Notes under the pieces: generated by a model | Databases searched by the model: none | The model's input: only the letters and a program-made list of their open reading frames with translations | Told to the model about the DNA's origin: nothing | Assembly: GCF_023055435.1 (NCBI RefSeq) | Contig: NW_025964372.1 | Coordinates: 45,570,001-45,634,000 of the forward strand | DNA length: 64,000 nucleotides | Source: Haliotis rufescens | Taxonomy: Eukaryota | Direction of reading: 5' to 3' | Position numbers and translations under genes: made by a program | In this document: one piece after another, positions 2,748 to 46,066 of the stretch | How positions within the stretch are numbered: the first letter of the stretch is position 1 | Layout: every line of letters starts with the position of its first letter

Positions 2748-2812
2748 TAGTGAGATTGGTTTTGTCACAGCAAGTTCACATCAATCCCAGCAAATATACA
2801 TGTAATACTTAC

Positions 2813-3079
2813 AAGCCAAAATGACTGTTGCAGTTTCTGAGACAGATGAAACATTTCTTGAGCTTGAGATGACACAATCGTAACGACCAATATCAGAGGA
2901 TGAAAACTGTGGTATCAGCAGAGAATTATTTCCAAATACTGCAGATTTTGTCTGTATCTGGCTGTCATTGAACCTCCATTCATAGACCAGAGTTGTCCCC
3001 CCTGAGTCCTGGGCCCGACAGTCGAGGCGGACATCGCGTCCCGCTATCACAGCCTTGCTCTGAGGACGGCTCAACCATT
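2813..3079 (-). CDS. Ig (I-set-like) domain exon of the same IgSF gene
   Basis: Phase 1-1 exon (tttttgtcaag|AA...GCTT|gtaagt, 267 nt): WLSRPQSKAVIAGRDVRLDC...YEWRFND...SLLIPQFSSSDIGRYDC, with the canonical DxGxYxC motif. Confidence 0.88.
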
Positions 3080-3271
3080 CTTGACAAAAAGGAAAATAAA
3101 CATTGGTTCAAAATTAATATTCCAATCCAAGGAAGTTTTCCACTTTTATCAACAGATGTGACAAATAAAAGCAACAGAAAGTTTTATTTGTAGTTCTATC
3201 TTAGTTAATTGGTTAGCCAAAAATCTGTAAACCAGAAAATATACTCACTGCTAAAAGTAACGCGAACCATA

Positions 3272-8734: not shown

Positions 8735-9581
8735 GTAGTGGACGAAGGAGGGTAGCTGACAGGCCTAGGGCTTCTGCAAATGATAATGCCCTGACAAATA
8801 TAGTTGCCGTTATTATAGCTAACGTGGATTGAATTTGTAGCTAACCCCCCAAGGAACACTGCAACAAGCAGCAGCATACATTTAGTGGCTGTTATAATAG
8901 CTCACAACGGAGATAGAGAATATTTCATGTGTCGAGTGAAATATCATGTTTCTGTCATCGAGTTACAATATAAACAAAAGTATCGAAAAATATTTAGGGT
9001 CTCGAAAATTCTTCATTATACATTTAGAAAAGATACAAAATCAACAAAAATATTCTTGAAAACTAGGAGACCACTGTTTGAAGCGAAAGGACACACGCTG
9101 GTCAAGAAACGAAAATGGCGCTTTTTGAAAGTCTCGATTGACGAGTTAAATGAAAAATTTACAGTTTATAACGAAACATTTTCGAGTGAATAACACACGG
9201 AAAGACGTGATATTAACTCCACATTTATATATATATTAATTGTGTCCTGGCTAGACACTTTACAAGCTCCTCAGAGCGATATCCCGTTCGCGCAGCTCTC
9301 TATACACTCTCCTACCCAGAGTTCCATGCGACCAGCATATAGTACCTCTGCCACAGGCCAGCGCCATGTGACGATTCGTCACATCTTACACCGTCCATTC
9401 AAGATATTGTATATGTTTTTCATCTGTTTCATTTTTGACAAGTCTACATATCTAGATAAACATATGTCATAGAATGGTTTACTTTCATTGAGAAAATATC
9501 CTCAATCGTGAAATACTATTAAAGCGCCCCTAAATACTTACATTAGTCCGTTCTATTCTGATTTCTGAAAAAGCGCGTTTA

Positions 9582-9892
9582 TACGGAACCGTAGAGGGGA
9601 CATCGGATGAGAAAATAAATATCAATAGTAAGGCGTGGCCACGAGATAATAAGTCGAGGCCACGAGATAATAAGTCGTGGCCACGAGATAATAAGGCGTG
9701 GCCACGATATAATAAGTCGAGGCCACGAGATAATAAGTCGTGGCCACGAGATAATAAGGCGTGGCCACGAGATAACAAGTCGTGGCCACGATATAATAAG
9801 TCGAGGCCACGAGATGAATAAGGCGTGGCCACGATATAATAAGTCGAGGCCACGAGATAAATAAGGCGTGGCCACGACATAATTTAGCCAAT
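9582..9892 (+). repeat. Left TIR with 12 x 21-bp tandem units
   Basis: Unit AATAAG(T/G)CG(T/A)GGCCACGAGAT containing palindrome CGTGGCCACG; ends in TAATTTAGCCAAT. Confidence 0.92.
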
Positions 9893-9925
9893 GAAAACTC
9901 AGGTTACGTATTTTCGAATTTTAGG

Positions 9926-10000
9926 ATGGAGGACCTCGAGCGTTTTCTCACAGACAGGGGAGTTCCTAGCGAAAACGTTCAGCTACTTGTTGCTGACAAG
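9926..10000 (+). CDS. Transposon-borne SAM-like + HECT E3 ubiquitin ligase (692 aa), exon 1 of 8
   Basis: ATG GAG GAC...GAC AAG|gtaaaa, 25 codons MEDLERFLTDRGVPSENVQLLVADK; phase 0; with exon 2 gives a SAM-like N-terminus. Confidence 0.7.
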
Positions 10001-10772
10001 GTAAAAAGACGATAAGGTTTTCGTGTAAAACGTACTCTTCAGGTTTGCATGTAAAAATCACATTTATTACTGTATTTTCACGGTAAACGGTTGACTTGGC
10101 CAAGGTGTATGTACCATTAGGTGATGAAGAAGTAAGCTCTGCTTTTAAGCGATTTTGTACCATATTTATGAATCTTGACCATTTCCCACGAAGACCTAGA
10201 GACGAAGTTCAGTGTTTTCGTGCAACTCAAGTTTTGAACGGGCGAATCTTGAATATTACTGATATACATTGCAATAATCATTGTAATGCTATCCTACATA
10301 CAAAATCTTTTTGACATCATCAGACAACCAAATATATTGCTGTTCTCTTTGAGTTTTGTTTTTAACAAAACCCAATAAACAAATATAGAAATATAATGAA
10401 ACAAACAAACTATTAAACAAAATTGGATGTGCTTAAATAGTTTCATAGCCTAAATGTAATAATGTGCACAACATGCATTGGCAACATTTATCAGTAAAGA
10501 GCGAAGTAATAAGATATATCGTGAATATTGAAATAATCATTTGTGCTGACAATTAGCATCGATTTTCGTAGCTTATTTTCGATTTTGAACAGGCTTAAAG
10601 TTCTGGGATACAGTCCTTACCATTAGATTGTTAAATGATTTAGAATTAAATTATAAGATAAATAACAGGTAACATTAAGATGAGTTGAGAATTATTACTA
10701 TTATTCATGTGATTTAAAATATAAGCTTTGATGTGATTAAACCACTGACGAGATACAAATATTTATGTTAAG

Positions 10773-11390
10773 ATCGATCCAAGCCTTATCCTTGAGATGA
10801 AGGATGAAGAGCTTTCTAGATATATTCCTACATACGGGGACAGGCTTGCGACGGTAGTCTGGTGCAAGTCAAGGCAATTGGAAAACCCAGAAAAACAGAC
10901 CAAATCAAGCGGATTGTTCGACAGAATTCGAGAAAAAATGTCAAATCGAAGAAAGAGGGGTCAGAAAGATTTTGACTTTCTGCAAGGTAACAAAAACGCA
11001 AGAAAAACATCTCGGCGAATTGAAGTTGGGTGGATGGATTTTGACACGAAGGTTAATGCCTTTAAGCAAGTGCGGAGTCAAAACGGGGGTGGGACAAGAC
11101 ATTTATCAGTTTATAGGGATGCTGGACAAGCAGATATTCTGGCAGTAGCCAAACAACTGTTCTTTACCGATGGTGAAAGCAAAAGGGGAAACGAGGCGCA
11201 ATTCACTTTCTCCATCAAAGATTTTAAAGGGGAAGAAATGGGCCAAAAAACAGTGGCTAATGTATATGAGGAAACTAAAGTAAAGATTATTCGTTTCTAC
11301 ATGTACACAAAGAAAAAAGAGAATGAGCAAGATCTGTCAACTGACGTGGTCCAACACCAGTCTAACAATGAATCGGCGAGTCAAAAAAAG
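10773..11390 (+). CDS. HECT ligase exon 2 (SAM-like C-half plus middle domain)
   Basis: ag|ATC GAT CCA...AAA AAG|gtaaaa; IDPSLILEMKDEELSRYIPTYGDRL...GGGTRHLSV...AKQLFF; 618 nt, phase 0-0. Confidence 0.8.
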
Positions 11391-11845
11391 GTAAAACCAT
11401 ATTTTGATATCAGGTAAAAGTAAAATTGATTTTTTTGCCATACAACATAAATAAGGTTGGAATAAACCTTCTCTGAGATGTCTAGTTTCTAGAAGCCTCA
11501 CACCTCAGCGCCATAAAATAACATTGGTAATACCATCACATCGAACGCTTTCATCAAACAGTCAAGTGGAGAATGGACTTTTCTTGCATATACATACAGA
11601 CGAATATACATGCATCTTTCACAGTGTAAAGGCAGGGGTCAATATTGTTGGATGCAAAATCTGCGAGAAGGAGCGTCACACTTAAACATACGAAAATATG
11701 TGTATTGCATGCGATTAGAAATTTGATTTATCTTAATATATGCAGTTGTATGAAATCCCTTAGATTTGTTCTATTGGAGATTATAGACATTGTTGTTTTT
11801 ACCCCTAAATAATCTGGACAATGGAGATTGATGACGGCACTCCAA

Positions 11846-12080
11846 TTGCTTCTACGGGAACGCCTACTGCTTCTCCTGGGACGCCTACTATTTCTACTGG
11901 GATGCCCACTGCTTCTACCAGGACGCCCACTGCTTCTACCGGGACGTTTACTGCTTCTACCGGGACGTCTACTGCTTCTACCGGGACGTCTACTGCTTCT
12001 ACTGGGACGTCTACTGCTTCTACCGGGACGTCTACTGCTTCTACCGGGACGACTACTGCTTCTACGGGGACGCCGACTGT
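11846..12080 (+). repeat. 21-bp tandem repeat (ACTGCTTCTACCGGGACGTCT, TASTGTS in frame) in ligase intron 2
   Basis: About 11 imperfect units; open reading frame. Confidence 0.85.
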
Positions 12081-12141
12081 TGTTTTCAACTCGGGCAGTG
12101 TACGTATAAGCATTAAACACGTGGAGTATCATACTTACAGA

Positions 12142-12396
12142 CCCGTGAAGATCCGGGATAGAATTGGTCTTCAGTAACCCATCCGTGTCGTAAGAGGCGA
12201 CTAACGGGATTGGGTGGTCAGGCTCGCTGACTTGGTTGACACATGTCATCGTATCCCAATTGCGTTGACCGATGCTCATGCTGTTGATCCCTGGATGGTC
12301 TTGTCCAGACTCGATTATTTACAGACCGCCGCCTTATAGTTGGAATATTGCTGACTGATGCGTAAAAATAAACTCACTCACTCACTCACTCACTCA
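12142..12396 (+). mobile_element. SINE-like family B copy nested in ligase intron 2
   Basis: CCCGTGAAGATCCGGG...TGTCGTAAGAGGCGACTAACGGG...(ACTC)n. Confidence 0.8.
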
Positions 12397-13004
12397 TAAT
12401 TACAATTGAAATGAATGCCTAGACTTCTTGACACCGTAGTGCTTTGTTTTAAATCAACTCCTGACGAAAACAAGTGATGTGTTCCAACAAATGGGTTATA
12501 CATTTTTTGGGTTTACAATAGAAAAAAAGCAATATGATGAATAATGACGTCATCCTTGTACGGTCATTCGGTAGAGATAAACTAGATTTCACAGTATATT
12601 GTCAAATAAAGCGTACAAGAAATAACATATTATATGATACAGTCAGTATAATCAAATATCTTGTAAAGTGAAAAAAATAGATATTTCACTCATCGCTATG
12701 CTACTTGGGAAAATATCTCCACTCGATAAGAGACAATTGCTATGTCATTGCAAACATCTAGTATCCACTATTACTATTTTCACAATGTCTCTTGTAAACG
12801 TCACAAGACATGACGTCAAACGTCACACAATCGATGATATACCTCTTCTGAACATTGTGATTTGAATTTTGGTTGGGAAAAATCAAGGTCAATGTCAATT
12901 GGATATTTATTACTTTTATCAACTTGTGTGGATATATTTTATATCGGAAGGCACTCGGTTGTGGTTCTTTATATTTTATACTTCATTGTTTCGTCTCCTT
13001 GCAG

Positions 13005-13267
13005 GCAATGCAGTCAATTTCAACTGATGATTCACTACCAGATCTAGACACTGTTTCATCAGAAGGCGGGGAAGCCGAACTTGGTGTTGAAGACCAAAAT
13101 GGTGAAACTGTAGACAGCACGGTCACATACAATGACGTGGATTCAAGTGAAGGAAGTGACTTGGCAGTATTTGACATACCAAGGCAGTCCAACAGGAACC
13201 TTGTGTATACCCGGAGTGACCAGCCACTCCCCCTTCAGCCTCCACCCCTTAGACTTGAGGCCGTGCG
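13005..13267 (+). CDS. HECT ligase exon 3 (acidic/Ser-rich linker)
   Basis: ctccttgcag|GCA ATG...GTG CG|gtgaga; 263 nt, phase 0-2, fits both neighbours. Confidence 0.7.
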
Positions 13268-13725
13268 GTGAGAGAATTATTTATGTGATTCAAACATAAG
13301 GGAAAACACAGTTTCATCAGTAAATTGAAATAACCTAAATCAGCCATGCATAAAACGTTTGTCATTTTCCCATTTGAGTTGCAGCTTATTAAAAATTCAA
13401 GTAGATATCGTCAATTTGTATCTTGAAAGTACTTTGCAATTATTTGTCATATGTTTATGCAAACATAAATCTTAGATGTAAAGTATAAGGTCAATTGTAT
13501 TTCCTATAGGTTTTATCGAGTGGATTCTTTCATATCCATAACAAAACGGAAAAAGTAACATTAAAGTTATGTTACAAACTGTTAAAATAATTTGGTCTGA
13601 GTTCAGAATTGAAGTAAGACGAGTTCTATGGATGAACAACTTCTTTATTACAATTAGTGCGACGTTTCGGTGTAGATCCTAACACCTTTTTCATGCAAGT
13701 GATGAATTGTTTTCTTGTTTTATAG

Positions 13726-14018
13726 ACATTCAGAAAATCTTCACGAGATATTGACCAGACTCGCGTCAGTGATCAATAAAGAACGACGGAACATTGTTAA
13801 TGTCACAAGACGTAATGTAATGTCAGGTGGCATCAGAGCTTTCAACAGGCCATCTTTCAACCCTGAAAATGGCTTGTCTGTTAAGTTTGCTGGGGAATAT
13901 GCAATAGACGATGGCGGGCCAAGCAGGGAGTTTTTAAGATTGCTCATGAAAGAAATATCTTCTCTCCCCATATTTACCGGTGACGAGACAAAAAAGATGC
14001 TGGATTTGAATTACACTG
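13726..14018 (+). CDS. HECT ligase exon 4 (HECT N-lobe start)
   Basis: ttttatag|A CAT...ACT G|gtaaga; LSVKFAGEYAIDDGGPSREFLRLLM is the HECT E-x-x-x-D-x-GG-x-x-REF motif. Confidence 0.9.
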
Positions 14019-14299
14019 GTAAGAACTTGCATGTTTTGTGAAGTGTATTGATTTTTGCATAACCATTTGTTTACCTTGAACTGAAGTTTACTGATAGACC
14101 TTGGGGGTATTTGACTTGAACTGGACGGGATTATAGTGCTATTCAATATTTTGTATAATGATAGATTTAGCTCTTTGACATATTTATACCATTTGAGTAT
14201 CATCACTAGATATATTGATACATATGTCAAGCTGTATCCCAGAAGGTAAAAGGTAGAATACACCCATAAAGTAGTATCGAAACAAATTATGTTTAAAGG

Positions 14300-15210
14300 T
14301 TTCAGGTGTCAGGAAATATAGCTACATGTACATCACAATTTTTATTGGTTCTGGTCAGTTTGCAACAGCTGACAGTAAACCTTTAAAGAAATATTCCGAG
14401 ATCCAGATATGTGGGTGCTGGACTTCCTCATTGACAATAATTTTGTCAAGTTTGGGGATAGAACATTTCGCCAAACGGTTGGAATCCCCATGGGTAGTAA
14501 CTGTGCTCCACTTCTAGCTGACCTTTTTCTCTTTGAATATGAGTCTGAGTGTTTAACAAATCTTGTTAAATCCAAGAAACGTTACCTTGCTAAAAAGTTT
14601 AATCTCAGTTTCAGGTACATTGATGACATTATTTCACACCAAGATAAATGAATTTCTGGATTTGATATATCCACCAGAATTAGAAATTAAAGAAACCACT
14701 GAGAGCCAATGCTGGGTTTCCTATCTCGACTTATGCATTGAGATTGACAATAATGACAGCATTTCTACTAAGCTATATATGACAAGAGGGATGATTTTAA
14801 TTTTGCCATCGTCAACTTTCCTTACTTGTGTAGCAACATCCCCTCAGCTCCCGCCTATGGTGTCTGCATTTCACAATTGCTTCTGTACTTAAGAGCATGT
14901 ACCTTTTACTCAGACTTCAAAAAAAGACATGCGCTACTAACAAATAAGCTCTTCAAGCAAGGTTACACTATCCAGGGCCTTGTCAGGTCTTTCCAAAAAT
15001 TATATGGCAGACATTCGGAAGCCTGCACTAAATATGACAAGTCACACTTCATATGATGTGATGCCATCCCATTTAATGACATTCATGTTGAGTTTTCTAA
15101 ACTCACGGCAAATTGGCATTTAATATTTTCTTGAAATTTTGTGAACGACGGGTGCTACCGGTAGGGCAGGAGAAGCTTACCATTTCGCGAACACCTTATC
15201 TCATCACAAG
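14300..15210 (+). pseudogene. 5'-truncated, frameshifted Penelope-like element reverse transcriptase fragment in ligase intron 4
   Basis: QTVGIPMGSNCAPLLADLFL, RYIDD, SYLDL, DKRDDFNFAIVNFPYLCSNIPSAPAYG motifs spread over several frames. Confidence 0.8.
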
Positions 15211-15353
15211 TCGGTGATTCATTCAAAATCTTTCAACACGATTTTGCCTTTCATGTCCAATGGAATCTGTTTCGACAGATATCGAGTTTGATTGTTCTTT
15301 GGCGTTGACGTTATTAATTTATCCATTCACTGATGTAAGTTTTCTTGTTTTAG

Positions 15354-15532
15354 CCCTACAAAGCGGTCTCTACTTGACAGCGGGGAAGATGATAGCATAT
15401 TCTGTCGTACACAATGGACCTCTTCCACGGTTTTTCAGTCCACTGCTGTTCAGTACGCTTGTTGGCGACAGCCAAATTCAGCCAAAGATTGATGACATCC
15501 AAGATGTCGCACAGAGGGAAAGTCTACTGAAG
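15354..15532 (+). CDS. HECT ligase exon 5
   Basis: tgttttag|CC CTA...CTG AAG|gtcgat; YLTAGKMIAYSVVHNGPLPRFFSPLLF; phase 1-0. Confidence 0.85.
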
Positions 15533-15988
15533 GTCGATTCAAACTCAATTCCCTAATTAGGTTTACATGATGCGTTACAAGATGCGTAACTGCCTTATCA
15601 ACATTTGTGTGGTCCTATAGTGTCATATATGTTTCATATATTCAAAAGCAAATGTATCAACTAGAATTATACTTCAGAAATATGTACTGTTTCAACACTG
15701 CTATATTTGGAATAGCACTATATGTAATAGTAACGATTCTAGTACTTTGTGGTTGAGTGCCATTCGGGCTTTGAACCCACACCATAAGAATCAGGCACCA
15801 ATTTGCCAGCATTGAAACTTCCACCATGTACCACCTCAACCACTTGGCATCGAAGCGATTTGTTATTAAAAAAATAACATGTTTGCCTTTGTTCATCAAT
15901 TAAATTGCATGAATTAACTGTTTGTATTAATTCTATAACTTCTTTTGTCTGAATTGTTAAAACTATAGAAATATGTAATGTTTTCCAG

Positions 15989-16161
15989 ATACGAAATGCA
16001 GAGGATATGTCTTCGTTCCTGGATGCCGTAGGTGGTGCTGATCAACTTATCCAACTTGCTGGATGTTACTCTCTTACTCTCTCCTTAGCAAAGAAGGAAG
16101 AACTTTGTGATGCCTTGATCCATTTTATTGTGCTTGGCAGAATCAAAGAGTGCCTAGATCA
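15989..16161 (+). CDS. HECT ligase exon 6
   Basis: ttttccag|ATA CGA...GAT CA|gtatgt; AGCYSLTLSLAKKEELCDALIHFIVLGRIKECLDQ; phase 0-2. Confidence 0.85.
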
Positions 16162-16608
16162 GTATGTACTGCTACCAAGCTTTTCAACGAATGTTTGACC
16201 GTTCACTGTCTTGTTAAATCCTTCCAAATGTTTTATGGTAGACAGAATGATATTTCTACCAAATATGACAGGCCGCTTGCAATATATGTGCATGGTGGGT
16301 GCTACCGGTAGAGCAGGACACGTTCCCCCTTTTCGCGAACACCTGGTGTCATTCCGATTTGTAATCAGTAATCCATGCATATATTGTTCTCTTTACATCG
16401 CCACAAATGCCCCATTGAATCTGTTTCGGCAGATATGATAAATCACAGCCCTAAGGCGTTGACGTTTACTATTAAATATCATTAATAAGTGCAATCGGGT
16501 TCGTTAGTGTTGCTGTTGCTGAATGGTGTCATAGTGCAGTAATGGTTAAAGTAATTTTAGTATCTGCGACAATTTAATACGCAAGAGTTAATAAAAAACA
16601 ACAACATA

Positions 16609-17712
16609 CACTCTCTCAAAAAAGAAACGCAACCCCTATATTTTCAAGATGTTTATCTCAATATGCAAGTTATTATAACACATTTAATATTGAAGACAAC
16701 AATATGACATTTGGCATGGTGGCAGTACAGTTATGCATCTTTAAGTCCAGACTTCGACAGTTCTCTCACTAAGATTGACTTGACGCAATGGGGCGTCTCT
16801 GATCTTTGGTTGTAAGACATGGCTCCCCACATCATGACGTTCCCTCCTCCAAATCTGTCGACCTGCCGAACACAGTTCGGGGAAAAACGTTCGTTTCCTC
16901 TTCTATAGACACGCTGTCTTCCGTCACGGCGTTGTAAGAGAAAACGTGATTCGTCACTAAACCAGACGCGCCTCCAGTTTCTCAGGGTCCATATCCGAAC
17001 GTTGGTGCACCACCTGATGTTGGTGGCGTAAAACAGGTCCAATAAGTGGTCTTCTTGCACGTAGACCGGCCTCTAGTAGACGGTTCCTAATTGTTTGTGC
17101 GGACACTCTTCTCAAACCTGGCACCTGTGTTGCAGTGACGGTAGGTGTGGCTAGCCGATTACGTAGGTGGGTGACCCGGATGAATCGATCCTGAGGTTGT
17201 GTGGTAACCCTTGGCCTACCATTTCTGGGGCGATCGACAGTTGCATGAAACTGGGTGTATCGGCTCCAAAGTCGGGAAATCGTTGTTTTATGAACATTGA
17301 GGTGCCGGGCAACGTTTCCAAAGCTTTGTCCGGCCTCAATACGACCAATGGCGATATTTCGATCTGCAGCACTCAACCGTAGCATATTCGACCTTGTCTT
17401 TCGGTGAAAATGATAGAGTGAATCTCTAATCAACGCGTGCTTTTATAAGCCCATACTTCTACTGCTCTTTCCATGAATTGCACGTGCATGAGGCTTTTGG
17501 CATGGGCCACGTGAAAACTGTGCTCACTATGATGAAAGAAACAATAAAATGCCCTTGTGCACGAAAATTGGTGTGTTTGGGCGCTTACGTTAATAAACAG
17601 TGTACATGGTATAAGTGCATATCAGAAAAATTGTATTTACAATCAATATTTTTTCTTCTGGGGGTTTTCTCACATTTTCAGACTGGGGTTGCGTTTCTTT
17701 TTTGAGAGAGTG
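16609..17712 (-). mobile_element. Internally deleted Tc1/mariner element nested in ligase intron 6
   Basis: TIRs CACTCTCTCAAAAAAGAAACGCAACCCC / GGGGTTGCGTTTCTTTTTTGAGAGAGTG with TA TSD on both sides. Confidence 0.92.
16795..17385 (-). pseudogene. Defective Tc1 transposase
   Basis: MLRLS...paired-type HTH, GRPR, then a frameshift near 17010 into WRRVWFSDESRF...GGGNVMMWGAM; second D and E region missing. Confidence 0.88.
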
Positions 17713-18049
17713 TATTTGGAATGTTTTCACAGTTAATTCAGTTATTATTCATAACAACGATCTGACCGATGCACAATTATACACATGAATTTTGACATCT
17801 GAGAATTGATCGTTAATGGGATAAAGTATGAAACCGTCTTTAGGATAACGTTCCAATGAAACAAACACATGCAACAAAAAATTTATCAAACTCAAATTTA
17901 TTTTATAAAGTGGGTATTGTTCGAGTTAAGGTGCATAGTCTTATCTGTTTCCTTACACAAACTACTTTAAGATAACTAAAGTAAATGTCTTCTGGGTTTT
18001 ATGACATCCATGTCTATTGCATATTAGCACAAGATATTTTCAATTCTAG

Positions 18050-18270
18050 ATTCCAAAAAGGACTGGCCACTTTGGGAGTGCTTGCAGAAATGCGTGTTCA
18101 CATCAAAGAAGTAAGGGAACTTTTCTGTTTCGATGAAAAGTATGAATTGAACGCTTCTGTGCTTGAAATGGTGTTCAGTGAACCATCCTTCTCCGAACCT
18201 GGGAGCAACAGGCGCAGAATGGAAGAAGAGACAGTCAGTTATTGGATGGACTATCTTCTGGACGTAGCAG
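18050..18270 (+). CDS. HECT ligase exon 7
   Basis: ttctag|A TTC CAA...GCA G|gtaatg; QFQKGLATLGVL...FSEPGSNRRRMEEETVSYWMDYL; phase 2-1. Confidence 0.88.
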
Positions 18271-18609
18271 GTAATGAGATAAGAAAAACAGTCGGACGTT
18301 AGTGTGTTTATAATAACTGTCATGGTGAACAAAGAATATTTATAACAGCAAATTACATGGGGATATCCATATGTAAAGCTAGAACGTGTTTGAGAGTCCA
18401 GATAACCAGACACGATCAGGACTGAGAACATGGTCCCTCTTGTGTGTGTCTCTATCACCTGTTAAGATCTAACTGCATTCGCAAATATGTGTCATGATGT
18501 ATTGTCAAATGAGTGAATATGGTCGGTGAGTTAATGTGGTTGGGTACATATTGTTTAGTGAGTTCCTATGTTTGGGTACTTTCTTTATTTGACAAAACTG
18601 TATTTTCAG

Positions 18610-18866
18610 AGGGCACAGAATCAGTCACCCTGAGTGACATATTGGTTTTTGCGACTGGCGCGGGATCCATTCCTCCCCTTGGTCTCCATCCACAGCCGCA
18701 GCTGACATTCCACACTGCAATTGAACTCAACCCTGAGAACAGAGAGAACTTCCCTCGAGCTAACACATGTGCAAATGTATTAGACATTCCAATGATCAGT
18801 AATTATAACCTGTTCAAGAAAAACATGAATGCAGCAATCAGTGTGAATATCTTCACTTCCGAGTGA
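18610..18866 (+). CDS. HECT ligase exon 8 (C-lobe with catalytic Cys, stop)
   Basis: ttttcag|AG GGC; ILVFATGAGSIPPLG...FPRANTCANVLDIP...NIFTSE*; Cys is the 32nd residue from the end, Phe at -4. Confidence 0.92.
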
Positions 18867-20496
18867 AAAGACGGGCATGACTGTTTGTCATGAATTGTCT
18901 TCCCCCTTTAAGTTTTGTTTTGCATTTGTTTCACTTTTACAGAACTGTTCTGCTATAATCGATTGAGCTTTTAGTCTAATTTTATTGAATCTGTTACTAC
19001 CAAATAGGTTAATTGGTACTGACATCTGATTGTTTAAGAAGATTTTATTTACACCTGTTCAAAACATTTTTAGACGAATGTCCTATCGTATTATTTCTAA
19101 TATACAAACCAGGTGTTGAATTTTTAATGGTTTGATGAGGTATGTTATTAAAGTTTAGTTTAAAGGAATTGCATGCTTTGATATCAACATGACAATACCG
19201 TGTTCCCTGTAGGGTCAGAAGAGGGGTCGTTTGAATCATTTTACATTTTGTGCTTTTGGTACAAGAGAAACCTTAAATTACTATGACCCGTTTAAATGTG
19301 TCTCTTAATGTGAAAATTAAGCGGAATTTGTTTTTGGAGTTTTTGTTGAGACAAAGAAATATTAGCTCATAGGTTTGTGGCATATAGTAAACGTGTTATT
19401 TTGTAAGCCTGTAAAGAACGTTTATTGTAATGAAACGAAGAAGGATGCAGATATGTTCTTTCTTTAAAACCCCAAATACGTTTAAATGACCATTGTAAGC
19501 AAGTTTTTTTGCAGTCAACATGTTTATGTTGTAATGGAAATTAAAAAAATATTGATGTTGTTGGTTAAGAATTACTAAGTTTGGGTACAGAAGGTTTAAA
19601 ACTTACAAATATCGCATCTGTTAACATTTTGATTTATTTGGATTGCATATTATGAACATCTTGTTATGTTTTGAACAGACAGAATAAATCCTGTTTAATT
19701 GATAAAAGTTAATGGAAGTCACTCTACCCCAGATATCCTGTTTTTTTCCCGGTGTGGATTACACCGTTAGCATTATAGTTTCTTGAAGTATTGTATTAAA
19801 TTTGCAGTCATTTTAAAAAGCTGTCACACAACACAATAAAGAGCCATCAGTTAACAGCTTAACAGGCTATTTTATGTCATTCTTTTAATGTTAATTCGTG
19901 AACATTCATTTGTTTCATGTATCTACCTAGACTGATAGTTTTGGAGTACAACGTTCAAAGTACATAATTTGCGTTGCGAACTGATATAAAACTTATTATC
20001 ATAGCAAATAGTCATCTGATAATCTTTACTTATATTACCACCAGGGCTTGTAATTCAACAATTTAAGCAATTGTTCCAAAGGTCTGCGACTACAGAATTA
20101 TAACATTTTACGAATGACGTGTCAGCTTTCTGTAATTCGGACATTATGTTAATCATGCACTAAACAAGTCAACTAAGCTTATGCAAGTTATTGTATGCAC
20201 ATAAATTTATTGTAGGGTTGCGGCTTTTGTATCAGCAAACATTTGTCAGAAGTGCAATCAGTTGGAAGTTTTGCTTATACTTCTTGTAAAACATCAGATC
20301 TAGAGTGAATCAATGTTAAATTTGGGAAATGGTTTATGTCTGAAACATTAAACGAAAGTTTGTACTGGCATTTATACCTGCTTTAGTTGCAAAACACTAA
20401 TGTTAATCATAACCATCAATAGGAATACGTGCCTCGTGGAAGGAGGCAACGAGTTACATTTGGTAGGATCATAAAACAGATGTATATTAGACTTTA

Positions 20497-20820
20497 CTAC
20501 AGGACTTCGTAGATTTCTTGTCGGAGATGTATATACAGATCAGCTGCTTCTTGAGCATTCGTTGCCGGTTGTAGGTTGTCTCTCCCCATGACTTTAGTAC
20601 ATATTTCATAAACGTCTTCATCACAGGGGATTGTTGAGCGAATCACGGCTTCCTCAAGGCAGGTAGAGACGTCTTCGTCGGACACAACACAGAGTTGATC
20701 TTCAGTTTCCCATAGAGCTGGAGCACTGTACATTTGCTCTGGATGACCACTTGCAATATTGTTTCTTGAGGGTCTAATGCAATGGTTGTCCCAAACGGCA
20801 GCCACGGAATCCAGATCATC
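20497..20820 (-). CDS. IS3EU-like transposase exon 2
   Basis: catttttag|GAT GAT CTG; DDLDSVAAVWDNHCIRPSRN...GHPEQMY...LYIHLRQEIYEVL*. Confidence 0.85.
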   Translation of the reverse strand, partial: DDLDSVAAVWDNHCIRPSRNNIASGHPEQMYSAPALWETEDQLCVVSDEDVSTCLEEAVIRSTIPCDEDVYEICTKVMGRDNLQPATNAQEAADLYIHLRQEIYEVL

Positions 20821-21050
20821 CTAAAAATGTTAATGTTAAAGAATTGTTTCCAACCGATTTATCTGGTGTAGATTAGGACATGAAAACAGCAAAAACCTGT
20901 TTTATATTGTATTGATCATTGTAGGTAACAGTAACATATTTTATAGTAAAGAGAAATATAAAATATATGTCGAAGAAAGTTTACATGTATGAAGTCGTTA
21001 CTTTATGTATGAACAGTTCTACTTGCATGACATAATACAATAAAGTGTAC

Positions 21051-21902
21051 CTGAACAATAGCCATGAAACAAAACTGGATAAGGTTTTTGTCCAAGAAAT
21101 CTCCCCTGAAATCTCCATTTTCCTCGAGACCTTTGAACGTTTCAATCCAAAACTGTGTACATTCCTTTCTTAGAAATGACCACCAGACTTCGATTCTTTG
21201 ATTTGATGTACTGGAACCATCAATGAAGCATCTTCCGGCTTGTGGATCTGTATTGTCACGTCGAAGATACTGTTGATACACTCGGACGTGTACATTTTCT
21301 GTACCATGGTCAGCCCTTACAATGCGTGGGCAACCTCTGTGGGTCCTAACGGCCTCTAAAAAGTATCCACCAATTACCTTTGGATTGTTGTTGGTATTGT
21401 AGACCTTGATCCATATTACTTTTCTTGAAAATCCACAAACACAAGCGTGGATACAAAGTCCAAATGGTTTAAGTTTATCATATCCATCTACATGCCAAAC
21501 AAAATTTGGCCCTTTGGCATAATAGGAACGCCGACGTAGTCGCCGAACTCTCCTTGATGCAACTCCCACTGGATCTAGATGACGCAAAATAAGTCGAACG
21601 TCTTCCATTCTAGCCTTTACACCACTTTGTTGACATCTAGCGTACATGATACGGTAGCCACACAGTTGTCCTGAAGCTGATAGTTGATCCTGTATAAAAC
21701 TCACAACATCCACGAGAGGGCTGAATCTACGACGACTCAGATTCATAGTCCTCAGAATTCTCTTAAGGTGCCGCACACTTAGTTTGAATCCATAGATGTT
21801 GTCAAGAATGTACACAATATCCTTGTAATTGATTCCAAGATGGAAATAATGTGATATTACTTCACTGCGAAGGTCTTGATTCATAATATGACCAAGTTTC
21901 AT
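21051..21902 (-). CDS. IS3EU-like DDE (integrase-core) transposase exon 1; 391 aa in total
   Basis: N-terminal HTH-like region, RRLRRRSYYAKGPNFVWHVDG, RADHGTEN, NQRIE (DD39E); donor CAG|gtacac, phase 0. Confidence 0.9.
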
Positions 21903-21955
21903 AAGTAATGGAATGATGAAAAGTATATAAAATGGCCGACCAAAACAGCAATTCT

Positions 21956-22243
21956 ATTGGTTAAATTATCTCATGGCCACGACTTATTATCTCGTGGCCA
22001 CGACTTATTATTTTGTGGCCACGCCTTATAATCTCGTGGCCACGCCTTATTATCTCGTGGCCACGCCTTATTATCTCGTGGCCTCGACTTATTATGTCGT
22101 GGCCACGCCTTATTATCTCGTGGCCTCGACTTATTATGTCGTGGCCACGCCTTATTATCTCGTGGCCTCGACTTATTATCTCGTGGCCACGCCTTACTAT
22201 TGATATTTATTTTCTCATCCGATGTCCCCTCTACGGTTCCGTA
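21956..22243 (-). repeat. Right TIR with 11 x 21-bp tandem units
   Basis: Reverse complement of left TIR; ends inward with TAATTTAACCAAT. Confidence 0.92.
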
Positions 22244-23094
22244 CGTTTATTTACAAACAAGAGAAAATTTTGAAGTCCGGCCACGTGATATGCAAGTTAG
22301 CCTGTGGCACTGCGAGCTTGAGACGATAAAGGGAGGCAATTTAAGGGGAGGTAACTCTTGTGTGACAATAGTTCCGTCAAAGTGTTTTGTTCACACAGAG
22401 ACCGTATGACCTCTGGTTCACAGCAGTGAAAGACAAAGTGTTATGTTCACTGCAAAGAAAATATCACTTTTCACACTAAAGTATATAATAAATTACAGAA
22501 TTTACAAATAGCGACGTCATGGAACATAATATAGGTTGACGTCACAAACAAGAAACGTGACGCCAATAACGTCATATAACAATATAATAGATAGCATCCC
22601 GTCGTTAGGGAAAAACAAGCTGCTATCACGTTACTTGTGAAAAAAATAACTAGTCTGAATAATATTGCTCCTTTTGCATGGTGTGTAGCTACAACAATGG
22701 CATTAATAAGTGATACACGTAAGAGAGAGAATTTTATGGATGTCAACTTCTTTATTATCATTTATGAGTAACACGCCTCGGAGTATATTCTTACTCCATC
22801 AGGCGTTTGAATGCTTTGATTGAAGCCAACAGTTAATTAGCGCTGATTGGTGATTAGCAATGGACAAATGAAAGACAGGATAAATACTGTATTTGCAGCT
22901 GCAGGCATTTAACAGATAGAGCTGCCTCCCTTGTTACTACTGTTCACATAGACCTTACATGCAGGTGATAATGATAATAAGCGCAAAATCCACATCACTG
23001 ATGGACACGCCCATGGCGCAAATTCAGCATATGTAGATATATAGAACAGAGAGGGGACATTAAGATAATAATAATATACACATTCAGTTGTAGC

Positions 23095-28619: not shown

Positions 28620-30171
28620 AGATGCTGAACACTTTATTTGACTGTAAGTTTGAATTGAAAGACACAACAGTGTATTTTTGATGTAATGCCAGTAGGCACT
28701 GAACAGTGTTAGTTTGATTTGAAAGACACACCGCTGTGTTTTTGATGTGATGCTAATAGGCACTGAACACTGTTAGTTTGATTTGAAAGGCACAACAGTG
28801 TATTTTGGATGTAATAGGTACTGAACACTGTTAGTTTGATTTGAAAGACACAACAGTGTATTTTGGATGTAATAGGTACTGAACACTGTTAGTTTGATTT
28901 GAAAGACACAACAGTGTATTTTGGATGTAATAGGTACTGAACACTGTTAGTTTGATTTGAAAGACACAACAGTGTATTTTGGATGTAATAGGCACTGAAC
29001 ACTGTAAGTTTGATTTGAAAGACACAACAGTGTATTTTGGATGTAATAGGTACTGAACACTGTAAGTTTGATTTGAAAGACACAACAGTGTATTTTGGAT
29101 GTAATAGGTACTGAACACTGTAAGTTTGATTTGAAAGACACAACAGTGTATTTTGGATGTAATAGGTACTGAACACTGTTAGTTTGATTTGAAAGGCACA
29201 ACAGTGTATTTTGGATGTAATAGGTACTGAACACTGTTAGTTTGATTTGAAAGACAACAGTGTATTTTGGATGTAATAGGCACTGAACACTGTAAGTTTG
29301 ATTTGAAAGACACAACATTGTATTTTGGATGTAATAGGCACTGAACACTGTAAGTTTGATTTGAAAGACACAACAGTGTATTTTGGATGTAATAGGCACT
29401 GAACACTGTAAGTTTGATTTGAAAGACACAGCAGTGTATTTTGGAAGTAATAGGTACTGAACACTGTAAGTTTGATTTGAAAGACACAACAGTGTATTTT
29501 GGATGTAATAGGCACTGAACACTGTAAGTTTGATTTGAAAGACACAACAGTGTATTTTGGATGTAATAGGCACTGAACACTGTTAGTTTGATTTGAAAGA
29601 CACAACAGTGTATTTTGGATGTAATAGGTACTGAACACTGTTAGTTTGATTTGAAAGACACAACAGTTTATTTTGGATGTAATAGGCACTGAACACTGTA
29701 AGTTTGATTTGAAAGACACAACAGTGTATTTTGGATGTAATAGGCACTGAACACTGTTAGTTTGATTTGAAAGACACAACATTGTATTTTGGATGTAATA
29801 GGTACTGAACACTGTTAGTTTGATTTGAAAGACACAACAGTTTATTTTGGATGTAATAGGCACTGAACACTGTAAGTTTGATTTGAAAGACACAACAGTG
29901 TATTTTGGATGTTATAGGCACTGAACACTGTAAGTTTGATTTGAAAGACACAACAGTGTATTTTGGATGTAATAGGTACTGAACACTGTAAGTTTGATTT
30001 GAAAGACAACAGTGTATTTTGGATGTAATCATGCTAATAGGTACTTAACCCTGTAAGTTTGATTTGAAAGACACAACAGTGTATTATGGATGTAATAGAA
30101 CACTGTTAGTTTGTTTTGAAAGACACAACAGTGTATTTTGGATGGAATAGGTACTGAACACTGTTTGATTT
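28620..30171. repeat. 58-bp tandem satellite (~27 copies)
   Basis: Unit TTAGTTTGATTTGAAAGACACAACAGTGTATTTTGGATGTAATAGGTACTGAACACTG. Confidence 0.95.
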
Positions 30172-31605: not shown

Positions 31606-32060
31606 GTAAGAGTTACTCCCCTTGTCCCACAATGCTTTCACATATTCTTAGGGATTGTTGAGAAGGAATTTATGGAGGAGTTTGAGAGTAATCATGTTGG
31701 AACACAATCATGACAATAAGTCTTGACACTGACAGATTTAGACACGGCCAAAATTCGATGAATTGCCTTTACTATTGTTACTATATCATCTACCGAAAAT
31801 GTCACAAGTTTTTGCAGTCGGGTTTCTTCATTTGTTTTGGCGTGTATGCAGATTAAAATGCCTACTGAAAATGATTTTGAAGAAAAATATTGCTGTTTTG
31901 CAAAATGGTTAATTTTCCAGAACACGCTGCTGATGTTTAAAAGTTTATTACTCCAGAATTGTTTTGGGATGAACATTATGAAGTTTTATTATTTCTTGAA
32001 TTATGAGTTGGTGAAGTTCTCTTTAGTCTAAGGTTTTATTTGCTTAAATCTATTTTGCAG

Positions 32061-32186
32061 TCACTCAGCTAAAAAAGAGTAAACACAAGAAGAAGCAAGC
32101 AGGTGCTGAACAAAAAATCCGCAGCATCACCCACGACCTCGAGGAGCTGAGGTCACGTCTGCAGGCTCGCATCTCCGAACTCTCAG
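32061..32186 (+). CDS. SURF6: SURF6 coding exon 3
   Basis: ttttgcag|TC ACT...TCA G|gtagag; LEELRSRLQARISELSG; phase 1-1. Confidence 0.82.
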
Positions 32187-32928
32187 GTAGAGCATCCCTG
32201 TATGGCAGAGTCAGGGGTAGAGCATCCCTGTAGGGCAGAGTCAGGGGTAGAGCATCCCTGTAGGGCAGAGTCAGGGGTAGAGCATCCCAGTAGGGCAGAG
32301 TCAGGGGTAGAGCATCCCTGTAGGGCAGAGTCAGGGGTAGAGCATCCCTGTAGGGTAGAGTCAGGGGTAGAGCATCCCTGTAGGGTAGAGTCAGGGATAG
32401 AGCATCCCTGTAGGGTAGAGTCAGGGGTAGAGCATCCCTGTAGGGCAGAGTCAGGGGTAGAGCATCCCTGTAGGGCAGAGTCAGGGGTAGAGCATCCCTG
32501 TAGGGCAGAGTCAGGGGTAGAGCATCCCTGTAGGGTAGAGTCAGGGGTAGAGCATCCCTGTAGGGCAGAGTCAGGGGTAGAGCATCCCTGAAGGGCAGAG
32601 TCAGGGGTAAAGCAGCCCAGCAGGGCAGAGTCAGGGATAGAGCATCCCTGTAGGGTAGAGTCAGGGGTAGAGCATCCCAGTAGGGCAGAGTCAGGGGTAG
32701 AGCATCCCTGTAGGGCAGAGTCAGGGGTAGAGCATCCCTGTAGGGTAGAGTCAGGGGTAGAGCATCCCTGTAGGGTAGAGTCAGGGATAGAGCATCCCTG
32801 TAGGGCAGAGTCAGGGATAGAGCATCCCTGTAGGGTAGAGTCACGGGTAGAGCAGCCCAGCAGGGCAGAGTCAGGGGTAGAGCATCCCTGTAGGGCAGAG
32901 TCAGGGATAGAGCATCCCTGTATGGCAG
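32187..32928. repeat. 30-bp minisatellite (~25 copies)
   Basis: Unit GTAGAGCATCCCTGTAGGGCAGAGTCAGGG. Confidence 0.95.
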
Positions 32929-33196
32929 ACCGCCTCCGTGGTCTAGTGGTCTAGTGGTAGAGTGTCTGCCCGGAGAGCAAGGTCTGGGGTTCGATCCCAG
33001 CCGCGTCATATAAAAAGACATTAAAAGATGGTACTTGTTGTTACCCTGTCTGGTGCTCGGCATTAAGGGGCTAAAACAGGGATTGGTCGTCTCAGAGTCA
33101 GTATACTGTGTCTGAGTGGGGTATTCATGTTAAACTGCGGCATGGTATCTCAGTGAGCTAGCACTATAAATTGGCATCAGTCCAGACTAGTACAAG
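32929..33196 (+). mobile_element. tRNA-headed SINE family D
   Basis: GGTTCGATCCC B-box then GTCATA..AAAGAC..TAAAAGATGGTACTTG; same as 62052-62380. Confidence 0.8.
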
Positions 33197-34180
33197 AGGT
33201 TAGGGGCAGAATACTGTCCTTGTTGTAGGGAGTCAGGGTCAGAGGTTAGGGGCAGAATACTGTCCTTGTAGGGTGTAAGGGTTAGAGGTTAGGTGCAGAG
33301 TACTGTCCTTGTTGTAGGGAGTCAGGGTTAGAGGTTAGGGGCAGAGTACTGTCCTTGTTGTAGGGAGTCAGGGTTAGAGGTTAGGGGCAGAGTACCGTCC
33401 TTGTTGTAGGGAGTCAGGGTTAGAGGTTAGGGGCAGAGTACTGTCCTTGTTGTAGGGGGTTAGAGGTTAGGGACAGAATAATGTCCTTGTTGTAGGGAGT
33501 CAGGGTCAGAGGTTAGGGGCAGAATTCTGTCCTTGTAGGGAGTCAGGGTTAGAGGTTAGGGTCAGAGTACTGTCCTTGTTGTAGGAAGTCAGGGTTAGAG
33601 GTTAGGGGCAGAGTACTGTCCTTGTTGTAGGGAGTCAGGGTTAGAGGTTAGGGGCAGAGTACTGTCCTTGTTGTAGGGAGTTAGGGTTAGAGGTTAGAGA
33701 CAGAGTACTGTCCTTGTTGTAGGGAGTTAGGGTTAGAGGTTAGAGACAGAGTACTGTCCTTGTTGTAGGGAGTCAGGGTTAGAGGTTAGGGGCAGAGTAC
33801 TGTCCTTGTTGTAGGGAGTCAGGGTTAGAGGTTAGAGACAGAGTACTGTCCTTGTTGTAGGGAGTTAGGGTTAGAGGTTAGAGACAGAGTACTGTCCTTG
33901 TTGTAGGGAGTCAGGGTTAGAGGTTAGAGACAGAGTACTGTCCTTGTTGTAGGGAGTCAGGGTTAGAGGTTAGAGACAGAGTACTGTCCTTGTTGTAGGG
34001 AGTCAGGGTTAGAGGTTAGAGGCAGAGTAGTTTTCCTTGTTGTAGGGAGTCAGGGTTAGAGGTTAGGGGCAGAGTACTGTCCTTGTTGTAGGGAGTCTGG
34101 GTTAGAGGTTAGAGGCAGAGTAGTTTTCCTTGTTGTAGGGAGTCGAGGTTGGAAGTTAGCGGCAGAGTAGTGTCCTTGTA
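33195..34180. repeat. 46-bp G-rich minisatellite
   Basis: Unit AGAGGTTAGGGGCAGAGTACTGTCCTTGTTGTAGGGAGTCAGGGTT. Confidence 0.93.
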
Positions 34181-34952: not shown

Positions 34953-35069
34953 AATCTTTCTGCATAAGGGAAGCACTATTTTGCCTCTGGGGAAATCCTG
35001 ACCAGACCCTGTGATATATACAGCAGCACTTCCTACTTATATAGTGACTTTGTTGTCTTGTTTCCACAG

Positions 35070-35713
35070 GAAAGAAGAGTAAGCTGACTGACAGGGAATC
35101 GAAGGAGAAGATCAGGCTGATGAAGAAGAATAAGAAGTTGAAGCTTAAGTTACGCGGTGCACAGAAGCAGAATAAACACAAGGGTGAACACGGACAGCAG
35201 ACAAACGCTGACGATTCCCCATCTCCGTCGGAGCCGTTAATGGTCTCCGAGAAACCTGTGTATAACAAGGAAGGCAAGCTTGTCTTCAGTAAGTTTGATT
35301 TCACGGATTCGGGGGAGGTTGAAAAACCAAAGACAGATTTACGGGGCAAAAATTACAAAAGACTGTTAGAAAAATTAGAAAAACGGAAAAAGAAGGCTGA
35401 AGAAGTGCGCGAGAAGAGTGTTGATGCTGCGCAAAAGTTGGAGGACAAGACAACGTGGAAAACTGCTTTGTTGAAGGCAGAGGGAGAGAAAGTTAAGGAC
35501 AATGAGAATCTGCTGAAGAAAGCAGTGAAACGGAAAGAAAAAGATAAAAAAAAGCGTCAGAAATCGTGGGAGTCCCGCACACAGCAAGTGGATCAGGACC
35601 AGAAAAAGAGGCAAGACAAGAGGAAGTTCAATTTGGATGCAAGGAAGAAACAAAAGCTAGATAAGAAAAAGAAAAAGGCGGTTAAAAAGGGGAGGCTCAT
35701 TCCAGGGTTTTGA
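35070..35713 (+). CDS. SURF6: SURF6 terminal coding exon (SURF6 domain); total protein 344 aa
   Basis: tttccacag|GA AAG; LVFSKFDF...KNYKRLLEKLEK...WKTALLKAEGEKVKD..LLKKAVKRKEK...W...RQDKRKFNL...KKGRLIPGF*; AATAAA follows at ~35737. Confidence 0.95.
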
Positions 35714-41100: not shown

Positions 41101-41367
41101 CCCGTGAAGATCCGGGGTAGAATAGGCCTTCAGCAGCCCATTCTTGCTTGGAAAGGCGACTATGCTTGTCGCAAGAGGCGACTAACGGGATCGGGTGGTC
41201 AAGCTCGCTGATTTGCTTGATGCATGTCATCGAGTTCCAATTGCATGGATCGATGCTCATGATGTCAATCACTGGATTGTCTGGTCCTGACTTAATTATT
41301 TACAGACCGCCGTCATATAGCTTGAATATTGCTGAGTCGGACGTTAAACAACAAACAAACAAATAAA
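41101..41367 (+). mobile_element. SINE-like family B
   Basis: Full match to family B consensus. Confidence 0.85.
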
Positions 41368-41379
41368 CAGCAGTCCATG

Positions 41380-41948
41380 CAGGTTGTTCCCCGGCAGGTA
41401 GACCCCACACCAGGTCGTTCCCCGTCAGGTAGACCCCCACACCAGGTTGTTCCCCGTCAGGTAGACCCCACACCAGGTCGTTCCCCGTCAGGTAGACCCC
41501 CAAACCAGGTCGTTCCCCGGCAGGTGGACCCCAAACCAGGTCGTTCCCCGTCAGGTAGACCCCCACACCAGGTTGTTCCCCGTCAGGTAGACCCCCCAAA
41601 CCAGGTCGTTCCCCGGCAGGTAGACCCCCCAAACCAGGTCGTTCCCCGGCAGGTAGACCTTAAACCAGATAATTCCGCGGCAGGTAGACCCCACACCAGG
41701 TCGTTCCCCGTCAGGTAGACCCCCAAACCAGGTCGTTCCCCGGCAGGTGGACCCCAAACCAGGTCGTTCCCCGGCAGGTAGACCCCCAAACCAGGTTGTT
41801 TTCCGGCAGATGGACCCCAAACCAAGTCGTTCCCCGGCAGGTAGCCCCCAAATCAGGTTGTTTTCCGGCAGATGGACCCCAGACCAGGTTGTTCCGCGGC
41901 AGGTAGACCCCAAACCAGGTCGTTCCCCGGCAGGTAGACCCCCAAACC
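41380..41948. repeat. ~32-bp minisatellite
   Basis: Unit CCAGGTCGTTCCCCGGCAGGTAGACCCCCAAA, ~18 copies. Confidence 0.92.
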
Positions 41949-44991: not shown

Positions 44992-45384
44992 ATCTCGGCA
45001 GGTTCGTATAACATTCCACCAGGAGGCACTTACGGTAGTAATTGATACTTCCTAGACGCCTTTCCGGAGGATCCAAAATCCTCGTTTTTATAACATTTTA
45101 GCAGACAGACAGACTTTAGGGTTCATTGGTATTTCTGATCATTATATTGAGTGAGAGAGTGAATTTTGTTATGCAAGCGGGCCATTAACATTTCCCGATA
45201 ACCCCGAGATGACCCTCAGCCCTCATTGTACCTGAACTTGTGATCACCACCAAGGGCAGATCCAGCAGTCCAAGAGAGGGGTCCAAAATATCAATATCCT
45301 CTCTGAAATAATTTAAACTGCCTGGACCACCCTCTATGATCACATGCCCCCCTCCATTCACAAAAAGCTGCATTGGCGTTTAGC

Positions 45385-45903: not shown

Positions 45904-46066
45904 CTGTACAGGTATTCCCTCTGTCTCCAGTAGCCCTTGTCCCTCCGGCTGATCATGTTGACCCTGATCCGGAGGAAGCACATGATGGACATGACGACGA
46001 CAGGGAAGAGGAAGATGAGGATGATGATGTAGTTGGCGACGGCGGTGGGTTTGTTGAAGTCGGACA
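45904..46066 (-). CDS. Small single-pass membrane protein, transmembrane exon
   Basis: gattccag|TG TCC...TAC AG|gtgaga; SDFNKPTAVANYIIILIFLFPVVVMSIMCFLRIRVNMISRRDKGYWRQREYLY; strong C-ending codon bias, hydrophobic stretch followed by basic residues. Confidence 0.75.

Follow-up and report, generated by a model that had tools for sequence, protein, structure and literature searches.

A HECT-type ubiquitin ligase gene with predicted SAM and ubiquitin-like domains inside an IS3EU/GingerRoot transposon of the abalone Haliotis rufescens

Why would a DNA transposon of an animal carry a gene for a ubiquitin ligase, and on which protein would such an enzyme act? The question is raised by a 64,000-nucleotide stretch of the Haliotis rufescens genome (NCBI RefSeq assembly GCF_023055435.1, contig NW_025964372.1, positions 45,570,001 to 45,634,000, forward strand), hereafter the window, whose own coordinates are used throughout. 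An earlier note, made from the letters of this DNA, had described in it a spliced 'cargo' ligase with a HECT domain. Little is known of the enzymes with which animal DNA transposons handle host defence, and the question becomes directly testable with a ligase gene that is intact, transcribed and present in several copies, and whose product has one catalytic cysteine. We find that the gene is real and that its structure is, as judged from sequence, well supported; for its function we offer a proposal.

An IS3EU/GingerRoot DNA transposon carries the ligase as its second gene, which lies between the terminal inverted repeats (TIRs) and takes up most of the element; the word 'cargo' was thus apt (Table 1). 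The element has the defining marks of its group as given in PMC10045372, PMC12730594 and PMC6839031: TA..TA termini (TAYGG..CCRTA), a 6-bp target-site duplication, TIRs longer than 30 bp and an integrase-like DDE transposase. The TIRs span about 300 bp, and their first 76 bases match between left and right (76/76), from which it follows that the insertion is recent and the copy young. Tc1, reverse-transcriptase (RT) and SINE-like insertions nested within the element lie in introns only.

The transposase matches the Pfam profile rva_4 (87.9 bits, 9e-25). Inspected by eye, it contains the D, D, E triad and, set against the published alignment, shares the motif WHxDGYDKLKP with IS3EU-1_DR, -1_CGi and -4_CGi. 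At window 21450-21470 (minus strand), outside the triad, its (I/V)DG(F/Y)SR motif carries a cysteine in place of an aspartate found in 29 of 32 intact motifs from related loci; because this near-invariant residue is replaced, the transposase of the present copy may be impaired.

Table 1 Features of the transposon and its two genes, in window coordinates
Feature	Position	Strand	Remarks
IS3EU/GingerRoot DNA transposon, 12,662 bp	9582..22243	.	ends TACGG...CCGTA
left target-site duplication CGTTTA	9576..9581	+	
right target-site duplication CGTTTA	22244..22249	+	
left TIR	9582..9895	+	~12 copies of a 21-bp unit, 12-bp palindromic core
right TIR	21952..22243	-	~11 copies of the left-TIR 21-bp unit
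ligase exon 1	9926..10000	+	SAM helices 1-2 (predicted), aa 1-25
ligase exon 2	10773..11390	+	rest of predicted SAM to 10883; basic helix and linker 10884-11006; predicted ubiquitin-like domain 11007-11321
extra ligase exon	11827..12099	+	91 aa, Thr/Ser-rich 7-residue repeat; RefSeq P0001, P0020, P0029
ligase exon, acidic linker	13005..13267	+	low model confidence, likely disordered
ligase exon, HECT N-lobe start	13726..14018	+	DDGGPSREF
HECT exon	15354..15532	+	exon join and RefSeq model
HECT exon	15989..16161	+	exon join and RefSeq model
HECT exon	18050..18270	+	joined to following exon in run X1
HECT C-lobe exon	18610..18866	+	catalytic Cys codon 18768-18770, -4 Phe, stop; Pfam HECT 6e-10
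likely 3' UTR	18867..19861	+	X1 and X3 contigs stop near AATAAA at about 19835
DDE transposase, 385 aa, open	20497..21884	-	exons 21884-21051 and 20820-20497; convergent with ligase; splice predicted
decayed reverse-transcriptase fragment	14379..15056	+	nested in ligase intron; RVT_1 4.7e-4, below cut-off
Tc1/mariner element	16606..17715	-	nested in ligase intron; 31-bp inverted ends, broken transposase

The eight exons first proposed join into 2,079 nt encoding 692 aa; the only stop is terminal, and all seven introns have GT-AG borders. An open frame of this length would arise by chance with a probability of about 1e-24 (stop frequency 0.076 per codon, from three intron stretches), an estimate that ignores that the exons had been picked for their openness; the real tests are a match in RefSeq and sequencing reads. 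With exon 2 as the query, a 783-aa H. rufescens RefSeq protein, P0001, is matched at 100% identity; it bears the name 'G2/M phase-specific E3 ligase-like'. P0001 equals the eight-exon protein plus 91 aa, and nothing else differs. The added residues are encoded by an exon with AG..GT borders, missed at first, in which a 21-nt repeat is translated into a Thr-rich 7-mer (Thr/Ser/Ala/Gly). This exon is also present in the H. rufescens models P0020 and P0029 and is left out of the H. rubra model P0012. The open frame and the eight exons therefore stand, the list was incomplete, and the gene has nine exons and eight introns, the ninth exon being the Thr-rich repeat.

The gene is present in several copies. 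Four accessions of identical or near-identical abalone RefSeq proteins are spread over more than one long contig. P0001 itself is listed twice, under different accessions and on different contigs, and a 79.7-Mb contig holds a third model that is one repeat unit shorter; some of these accessions may be haplotype duplicates.

Public sequencing runs were compared with a stretch that excludes ligase exons 1 and 2 and the extra exon. In run X1, a single contig passes directly from 18270 to 18610, so that, among the rows listed, the junction asked of RNA reads is seen for one intron. A contig of depth 5.4 covers the listed positions of exons 13005-13267 and 13726-14018, and X1 has zero depth at 13432, 13445 and 14263-14366, the intron positions listed. 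X1 and a second run, X3, were assigned to RNA by guess ('RNA?'), their run records bearing no RNA label; we take X1 to hold RNA because its contig joins exons without the intron. Ligase exons are covered in both runs, and the transposase end has zero depth in six of six bins in each. A small-RNA run, X19, yields one read, within the Tc1 insert, and gives no evidence on PIWI-interacting RNAs either way.

Run X15, from a related genome, bears on selection. Five of the seven exon differences listed (among 40 of 301 rows) are synonymous, which hints at purifying selection on the ligase; the earlier argument from the open frame to selection pointed the same way and was overstated. The contigs of X15 also include copies with deletions at 15166-15618, where a HECT exon is lost, and at 20755-21164, where part of the transposase goes, beside uninterrupted transposase contigs.

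The HECT domain scores 62.9 bits in Pfam against a cut-off of 23.9 and covers profile positions 11-298 of 306. DDGGPSREF, FATG and PRANTC are all present; Cys752, the 32nd residue from the end, aligns with the HTC cysteine of E6AP, and a phenylalanine stands at position -4. A model of the H. rubra copy (91% identical, 10-row alignment) finds the SMURF2 HECT domain in Foldseek with an E-value of 1e-13; the angle between the lobes differs, and the root-mean-square deviation (rmsd) amounts to 8-18. Solved HECT domains are matched at the sequence level as well. A weak sequence match to the C-lobe of UBR5 was also found, and the catalytic cysteine motif occurs in 32 of the 35 HECT rows checked.

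A catalytically complete HECT domain, as first proposed, is thus borne out, and as far as sequence can tell the ligase is likely active. The -4 phenylalanine had been called needed for transfer. It is indeed there, and 'needed' goes too far: in E6AP, which has C820 and F849 in a chain of 852 residues, the F849A mutant is described as still forming the thioester and di-ubiquitin, with altered linkage specificity (PMC6463701).

The part in front of the HECT domain had been read as a SAM-like N-terminus followed by an 'unassigned' middle domain, for which a beta-grasp fold was guessed. We modelled this N-terminal module from an alignment of 109 rows, the query plus 108 of 150 listed relatives, with a mean pLDDT of 90.6. 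The model has five helices within residues 2-62, a helix at 72-86 and a beta-grasp fold at 105-206. With VIA-align, residues 1-62 superpose on the SAM domain of Tankyrase-1 with Z 7.3 and rmsd 2.6 (61/63 aligned) and on that of BICC1 with Z 7.2. At the sequence level the likeness is faint: PDB matches are weak (ANKS4B, E 0.56; Tankyrase, E 1.6), and the best Pfam hit, SAM_2 in the homologue P0008, has an E-value of 0.19, below the cut-off. Atlas features of 0.78-0.81 serve as a lead only. Neither a SAM nor a ubiquitin-like (Ubl) family exceeds the Pfam cut-off in P0001 or in single-exon searches. A five-helix SAM domain is nevertheless predicted at aa 1-62, in agreement with the first reading.

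For the middle domain, 48 of the 50 fold-search rows span residues ~88-212, and those that are named are ubiquitin-fold domains. The best VIA-align match of residues ~100-209 is a Polycomb ULD (Z 9.3, rmsd 2.3, 79 aligned), and the top Foldseek match of the module is the N-terminal domain of SATB1 (1.8e-4). Overall, the core matches as beta-beta-alpha-beta-beta with Z 8-9.3 and rmsd 2.3-2.9 over about 80 residues. RAWUL/ULD domains lead by 0.9 Z in the first fold search; in the second, RING1B ties with ubiquitin, UFM1 and RA domains (Z 8.3-8.9). A sequence search up to E 10 returned no RAWUL chains. The beta-grasp guess thus proved right and the domain can be assigned: we predict a ubiquitin-like beta-grasp domain at aa 104-208, its fold secure, its subtype less so. 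It contains a long basic hairpin. Because its GGG is internal (aa 130-132) and its end reads ...YMYTKKK, lacking a C-terminal Gly-Gly, the sequence marks it as an integral domain rather than a conjugatable modifier.

Several features of the module bear on what it may bind. The residues G47 D48 R49, R106, W112, Q124, GGG, R134 and FF are near-invariant, and those most conserved in the Ubl domain are basic or glycine (R106, Q124, R126, GGG, R134, R199). Such conservation suggests a surface that binds an acidic partner or nucleic acid. The stretch between the two domains, aa 63-103 (10884-11006), is basic, with 13 Lys/Arg in 41 residues. A homodimer prediction for the SAM domain, made without an alignment, scored 0.00, which gives no verdict on self-association.

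The linker before the HECT domain is acidic, rich in Ser/Thr and of low confidence in the H. rubra model. An acidic-LPxL motif, encoded at ~13020-13045, recurs in the family: 8 of the 45 linkers have it, where shuffling gives 0.5 (0/1000), for a pattern picked after seeing P0001. A role as SUMO-targeted ligase was considered, since 4 of the 45 linkers contain a strict SUMO-interacting motif (SIM) and shuffled ones 0.6; with 0 in the abalone protein, it was rejected for this ligase.

The SAM-Ubl module belongs to a large family. A profile built from an alignment of eight N-termini retrieves 1,794 relatives at E <=0.001 and 1,001 at 1e-10, counted as representatives of 50%-identity clusters. Fish, beetles and starfish are among the sources of ten relatives that were looked up, and near-identical multi-locus families occur in Astyanax, Cyprinodon, Tribolium, Brachyhypopomus, Misgurnus and Notolabrus. 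A HECT domain is detectable in 44 of the 150 best module relatives: in 43 it is of a subtype ending in ..MD(V/I)V, and in one, starfish P0068, it is G2E3-like. The two subtypes separate with a support of 100/100, and the proteins nearest to the abalone ligase in their HECT domain have different N-termini, for example THAP. From this 43-to-1 pairing and the differing N-termini of the nearest HECT domains, it is likely that front end and HECT domain have been swapped between subtypes. The tree of the N-module is mostly unresolved, and its two type-A carriers never group together (0% of 200 bootstraps). A profile search with the HECT alignment A3 returned three proteins, all from abalone, out of 8,000 crowded candidates.

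The module also occurs outside this arrangement. In P0016, P0017 and P0018 (salmonids and Umbra, three fish genera) it stands without a HECT domain behind a coiled-coil N-terminus, possibly a domesticated derivative to judge from these sequences. In P0164, P0061, P0078 and P0063 it is joined to a protein kinase, leucine-rich repeats (LRRs), C2H2 fingers or a piggyBac-type transposase fragment. These joins may be fusions of gene models; the kinase join brings to mind fungal IS3EU, which carries an alpha-kinase as cargo. Two G2E3-like fish proteins, P0021 and P0022, have a motif resembling a ubiquitin-interacting motif (UIM) ahead of the HECT domain, to which P0021 adds a SIM-like one.

Does the pairing of ligase and transposase recur? 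The transposase matches 37 metagenome loci. The count covers the 14 with a downstream flank of 2 kb or more, which form nine families at 90% DNA identity, and omits 23 shorter ones. Ligase sequence is found at 8 of these 14 loci and in five of the nine families. In four of the positive families it is convergent with the transposase, and in L022, where the module is matched, it lies on the same strand. A G2E3-like HECT domain stands beside the transposase in L002/3 and L004/5. L029-L032 combine the Ubl part of the module with the other HECT subtype, between matching TACGA-type ends. Viral contigs gave no transposase match. Altogether, the ligase is very likely a standing accessory gene of the element.

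Repeat arrays recur in the TIRs of these families. In the abalone copy, the arrays at 9625-9883 and 21965-22200 have palindromic cores and a 21-bp period, equal to two helical turns, and arrays of 20-23-bp period, likewise with palindromic cores, are also present in L002/3, L004/5, L009, L011, L025, L031, L032 and L034. The unit ..GAGATAATA is common to elements with a G2E3-like HECT domain, and the group of L009/L011/L025/L031-34 has another unit. The units are likely transposase binding sites.

What, then, would the ligase act on? We favour the silencing or chromatin machinery of the host over the transposase and other proteins, and give this slightly less than an even chance. The basic stretch at aa 63-103 would carry the ligase to the nucleus, the SAM domain could let it oligomerise, and the conserved basic surface of the Ubl domain would bind a partner or chromatin. 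The long disordered linker would allow the HECT domain to accept ubiquitin at Cys752 from a host E2 and hand it to that partner, whose ubiquitylation might loosen the silencing of the element. We prefer a host-silencing target because accessory anti-silencing genes have precedents, in plant VANC (PMC5735166) and in TET/JBP within fungal IS3EU (PMC12730594), because N-termini change beside a constant transposase and, weakly, because X1 and X3 have ligase contigs alone.

Several observations weigh against this picture. The Ubl fold points to no single chromatin family. The linker of the abalone ligase has no SUMO-interacting or UIM pattern. NHRE3, whose HECT domain is G2E3-like, is cytoplasmic and described as degrading ISG15 (PMC13623101), so that this type of HECT domain is capable of non-nuclear work. 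X3 includes unspliced pieces over intron borders; contigs lose rare RNAs, so that zero transposase depth does not amount to absence. As to the accessory gene itself, four of the nine metagenome families have no ligase within a flank of 2.8-5.3 kb, the match at L025 is faint, and no metagenome locus is shown complete with its target duplication.

The ligase might instead act on its own transposase or transpososome, limiting its level or clearing the complex after strand transfer. That several families keep strictly to two convergent genes would suit such a role, as would conserved 20-23-bp TIR arrays, which could assemble a large protein complex. Parallels exist: ClpX acts on the MuA complex, and RAG1 carries its own RING ligase. 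Ligase coverage without transposase coverage in X1 and X3 fits another target, weakly, and one HECT type with varied N-termini (THAP among them) beside a constant transposase would be better explained by changing host targets. We consider a transposase target unlikely, if worth keeping in mind.

It is also conceivable that the ligase steers host proteins of DNA repair, the cell cycle or cell death, so that cells survive the breaks made by transposition. Its HECT domain groups with that of G2E3 and weakly matches UBR5, and both proteins are linked to DNA-damage responses (PMC9700323, PMC3673628). The HECT domain of G2E3 is, however, described as non-functional, its activity residing in the PHD/RING fingers (PMC3673628); kinship thus tells little of substrates, and we regard such a role as distinctly improbable.

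A ligase already in use by the host, for instance in immunity, while still inside its element would agree with its transcription and with NHRE3, a G2E3-like ligase that regulates antiviral immunity in fish (PMC13623101); intact TIRs, a target duplication, an open transposase and identical copies speak for a still-mobile element and make this very unlikely. Slightly less credible still is a passenger captured by chance and open merely through youth, like the host gene fragments in 22 of 77 clubmoss GingerRoot elements (PMC6839031): the copy is indeed young, but it holds a whole nine-exon gene whose frame survived the intronic insertions, its module recurs in IS3EU loci of other samples and in fish, beetles and starfish, and most listed exon differences are synonymous.

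In its widest form, the host-silencing proposal would make animal IS3EU a modular counter-silencing weapon, with a Polycomb-like SAM and RAWUL-like bait, an exchangeable HECT domain and host silencing complexes as ubiquitylated targets; the same mobile pool would have given G2E3 its dead HECT domain, and many 'G2E3 expansions' would be transposon copies. We regard this whole as a long shot.

Elsewhere in the window, host exons include two Ig-domain exons (547-912 and 2781-3107, minus strand) and a SURF6 exon (35048-35713, plus strand). Minisatellite arrays lie at 28638-30153, 32036-34179, 41317-41943, 45383-45917 and 55640-57114, with units of 58, 30, 46, 31-32, 20 and 29 bp, and copies of several short interspersed repeats abound.

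What is new here is the predicted assignment of the SAM-Ubl module, a family of 1,794 clusters without a Pfam match above cut-off, and evidence of its swap between HECT subtypes. A practical consequence is that invertebrate and fish genes labelled 'G2/M phase-specific E3 ligase-like' can be transposon genes; in a sea cucumber, 20 'G2E3' copies have been interpreted as a deep-sea adaptation of DNA repair (PMC9700323).

Compared with known ligases, the abalone protein has neither the C2-WW architecture of NEDD4 nor the RCC1-like domains of HERC; as the earlier note had stated, Pfam finds no WW, RCC1-like or PHD/RING domains in P0001, nor a C2 domain. The likeness of its front end to the SAM domains of Tankyrase and BICC1, to Polycomb RAWUL/ULD and to the ULD of SATB1 is one of predicted folds, at no more than 20% identity.

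G2E3 is the closest named relative. The divergent HECT domain of the ligase falls in the G2E3-containing clade (100/100 against the other subtype), in keeping with its RefSeq label. Lizard G2E3 (P0025), by contrast, has PHD/RING fingers, the catalytic cysteine motif was not found in two lizard proteins, and the abalone gene is mobile and multi-copy. Since the zinc fingers are absent and the cysteine kept, the ligase is, on its sequence, not G2E3 despite the label. It probably belongs to the G2E3-like (GL-Metazoa) class IV HECT proteins of PMC3673628, in whose searched text 'transpos' has 0 occurrences. A nested position of G2E3 among mobile-type HECT domains was obtained with LG+G4 (97/95; AU p 0.007 against leaving G2E3 outside, for a group named after an earlier tree); a mixture model gave no resolution, and the nesting is not claimed. 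As G2E3 is dated after the chordate/echinoderm split (PMC2837046), a mobile origin of its HECT domain is conceivable. NHRE3 of fish likewise combines a G2E3-like HECT domain with an N-terminus foreign to G2E3, was first annotated as G2E3-like and is reported active (PMC13623101); it has NHR instead of SAM-Ubl, and we set it beside the abalone ligase by description only. The searched text of that paper also has 0 occurrences of 'transpos'.

Among accessory genes of transposons, VANC of Arabidopsis VANDAL elements offers a likeness of design, with no homology claimed: conserved domains with a tandem-repeat variable region, and tandem motif arrays in the cognate element (PMC5735166). VANC binds DNA and acts on methylation, as against the E3 ligase here (PMC5735166). 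The literature searched contains no HECT gene in IS3EU, and 'HECT' and 'ubiquitin' have 0 occurrences in the main text of the IS3EU/GingerRoot papers searched; Repbase entries, outside that search, may describe a second protein, as names like IS3EU-1_CGi_2p imply. With other IS3EU/GingerRoot elements, the abalone copy shares TA..TA ends, the 6-bp duplication and a DDE transposase with WHxDGYDKLKP. Fungal IS3EU likewise has a second gene opposite the transposase, there an alpha-kinase (PMC12730594). In the abalone element that gene encodes a ligase of predicted SAM-Ubl-HECT architecture, which by all features testable is both an IS3EU gene and a HECT ligase.

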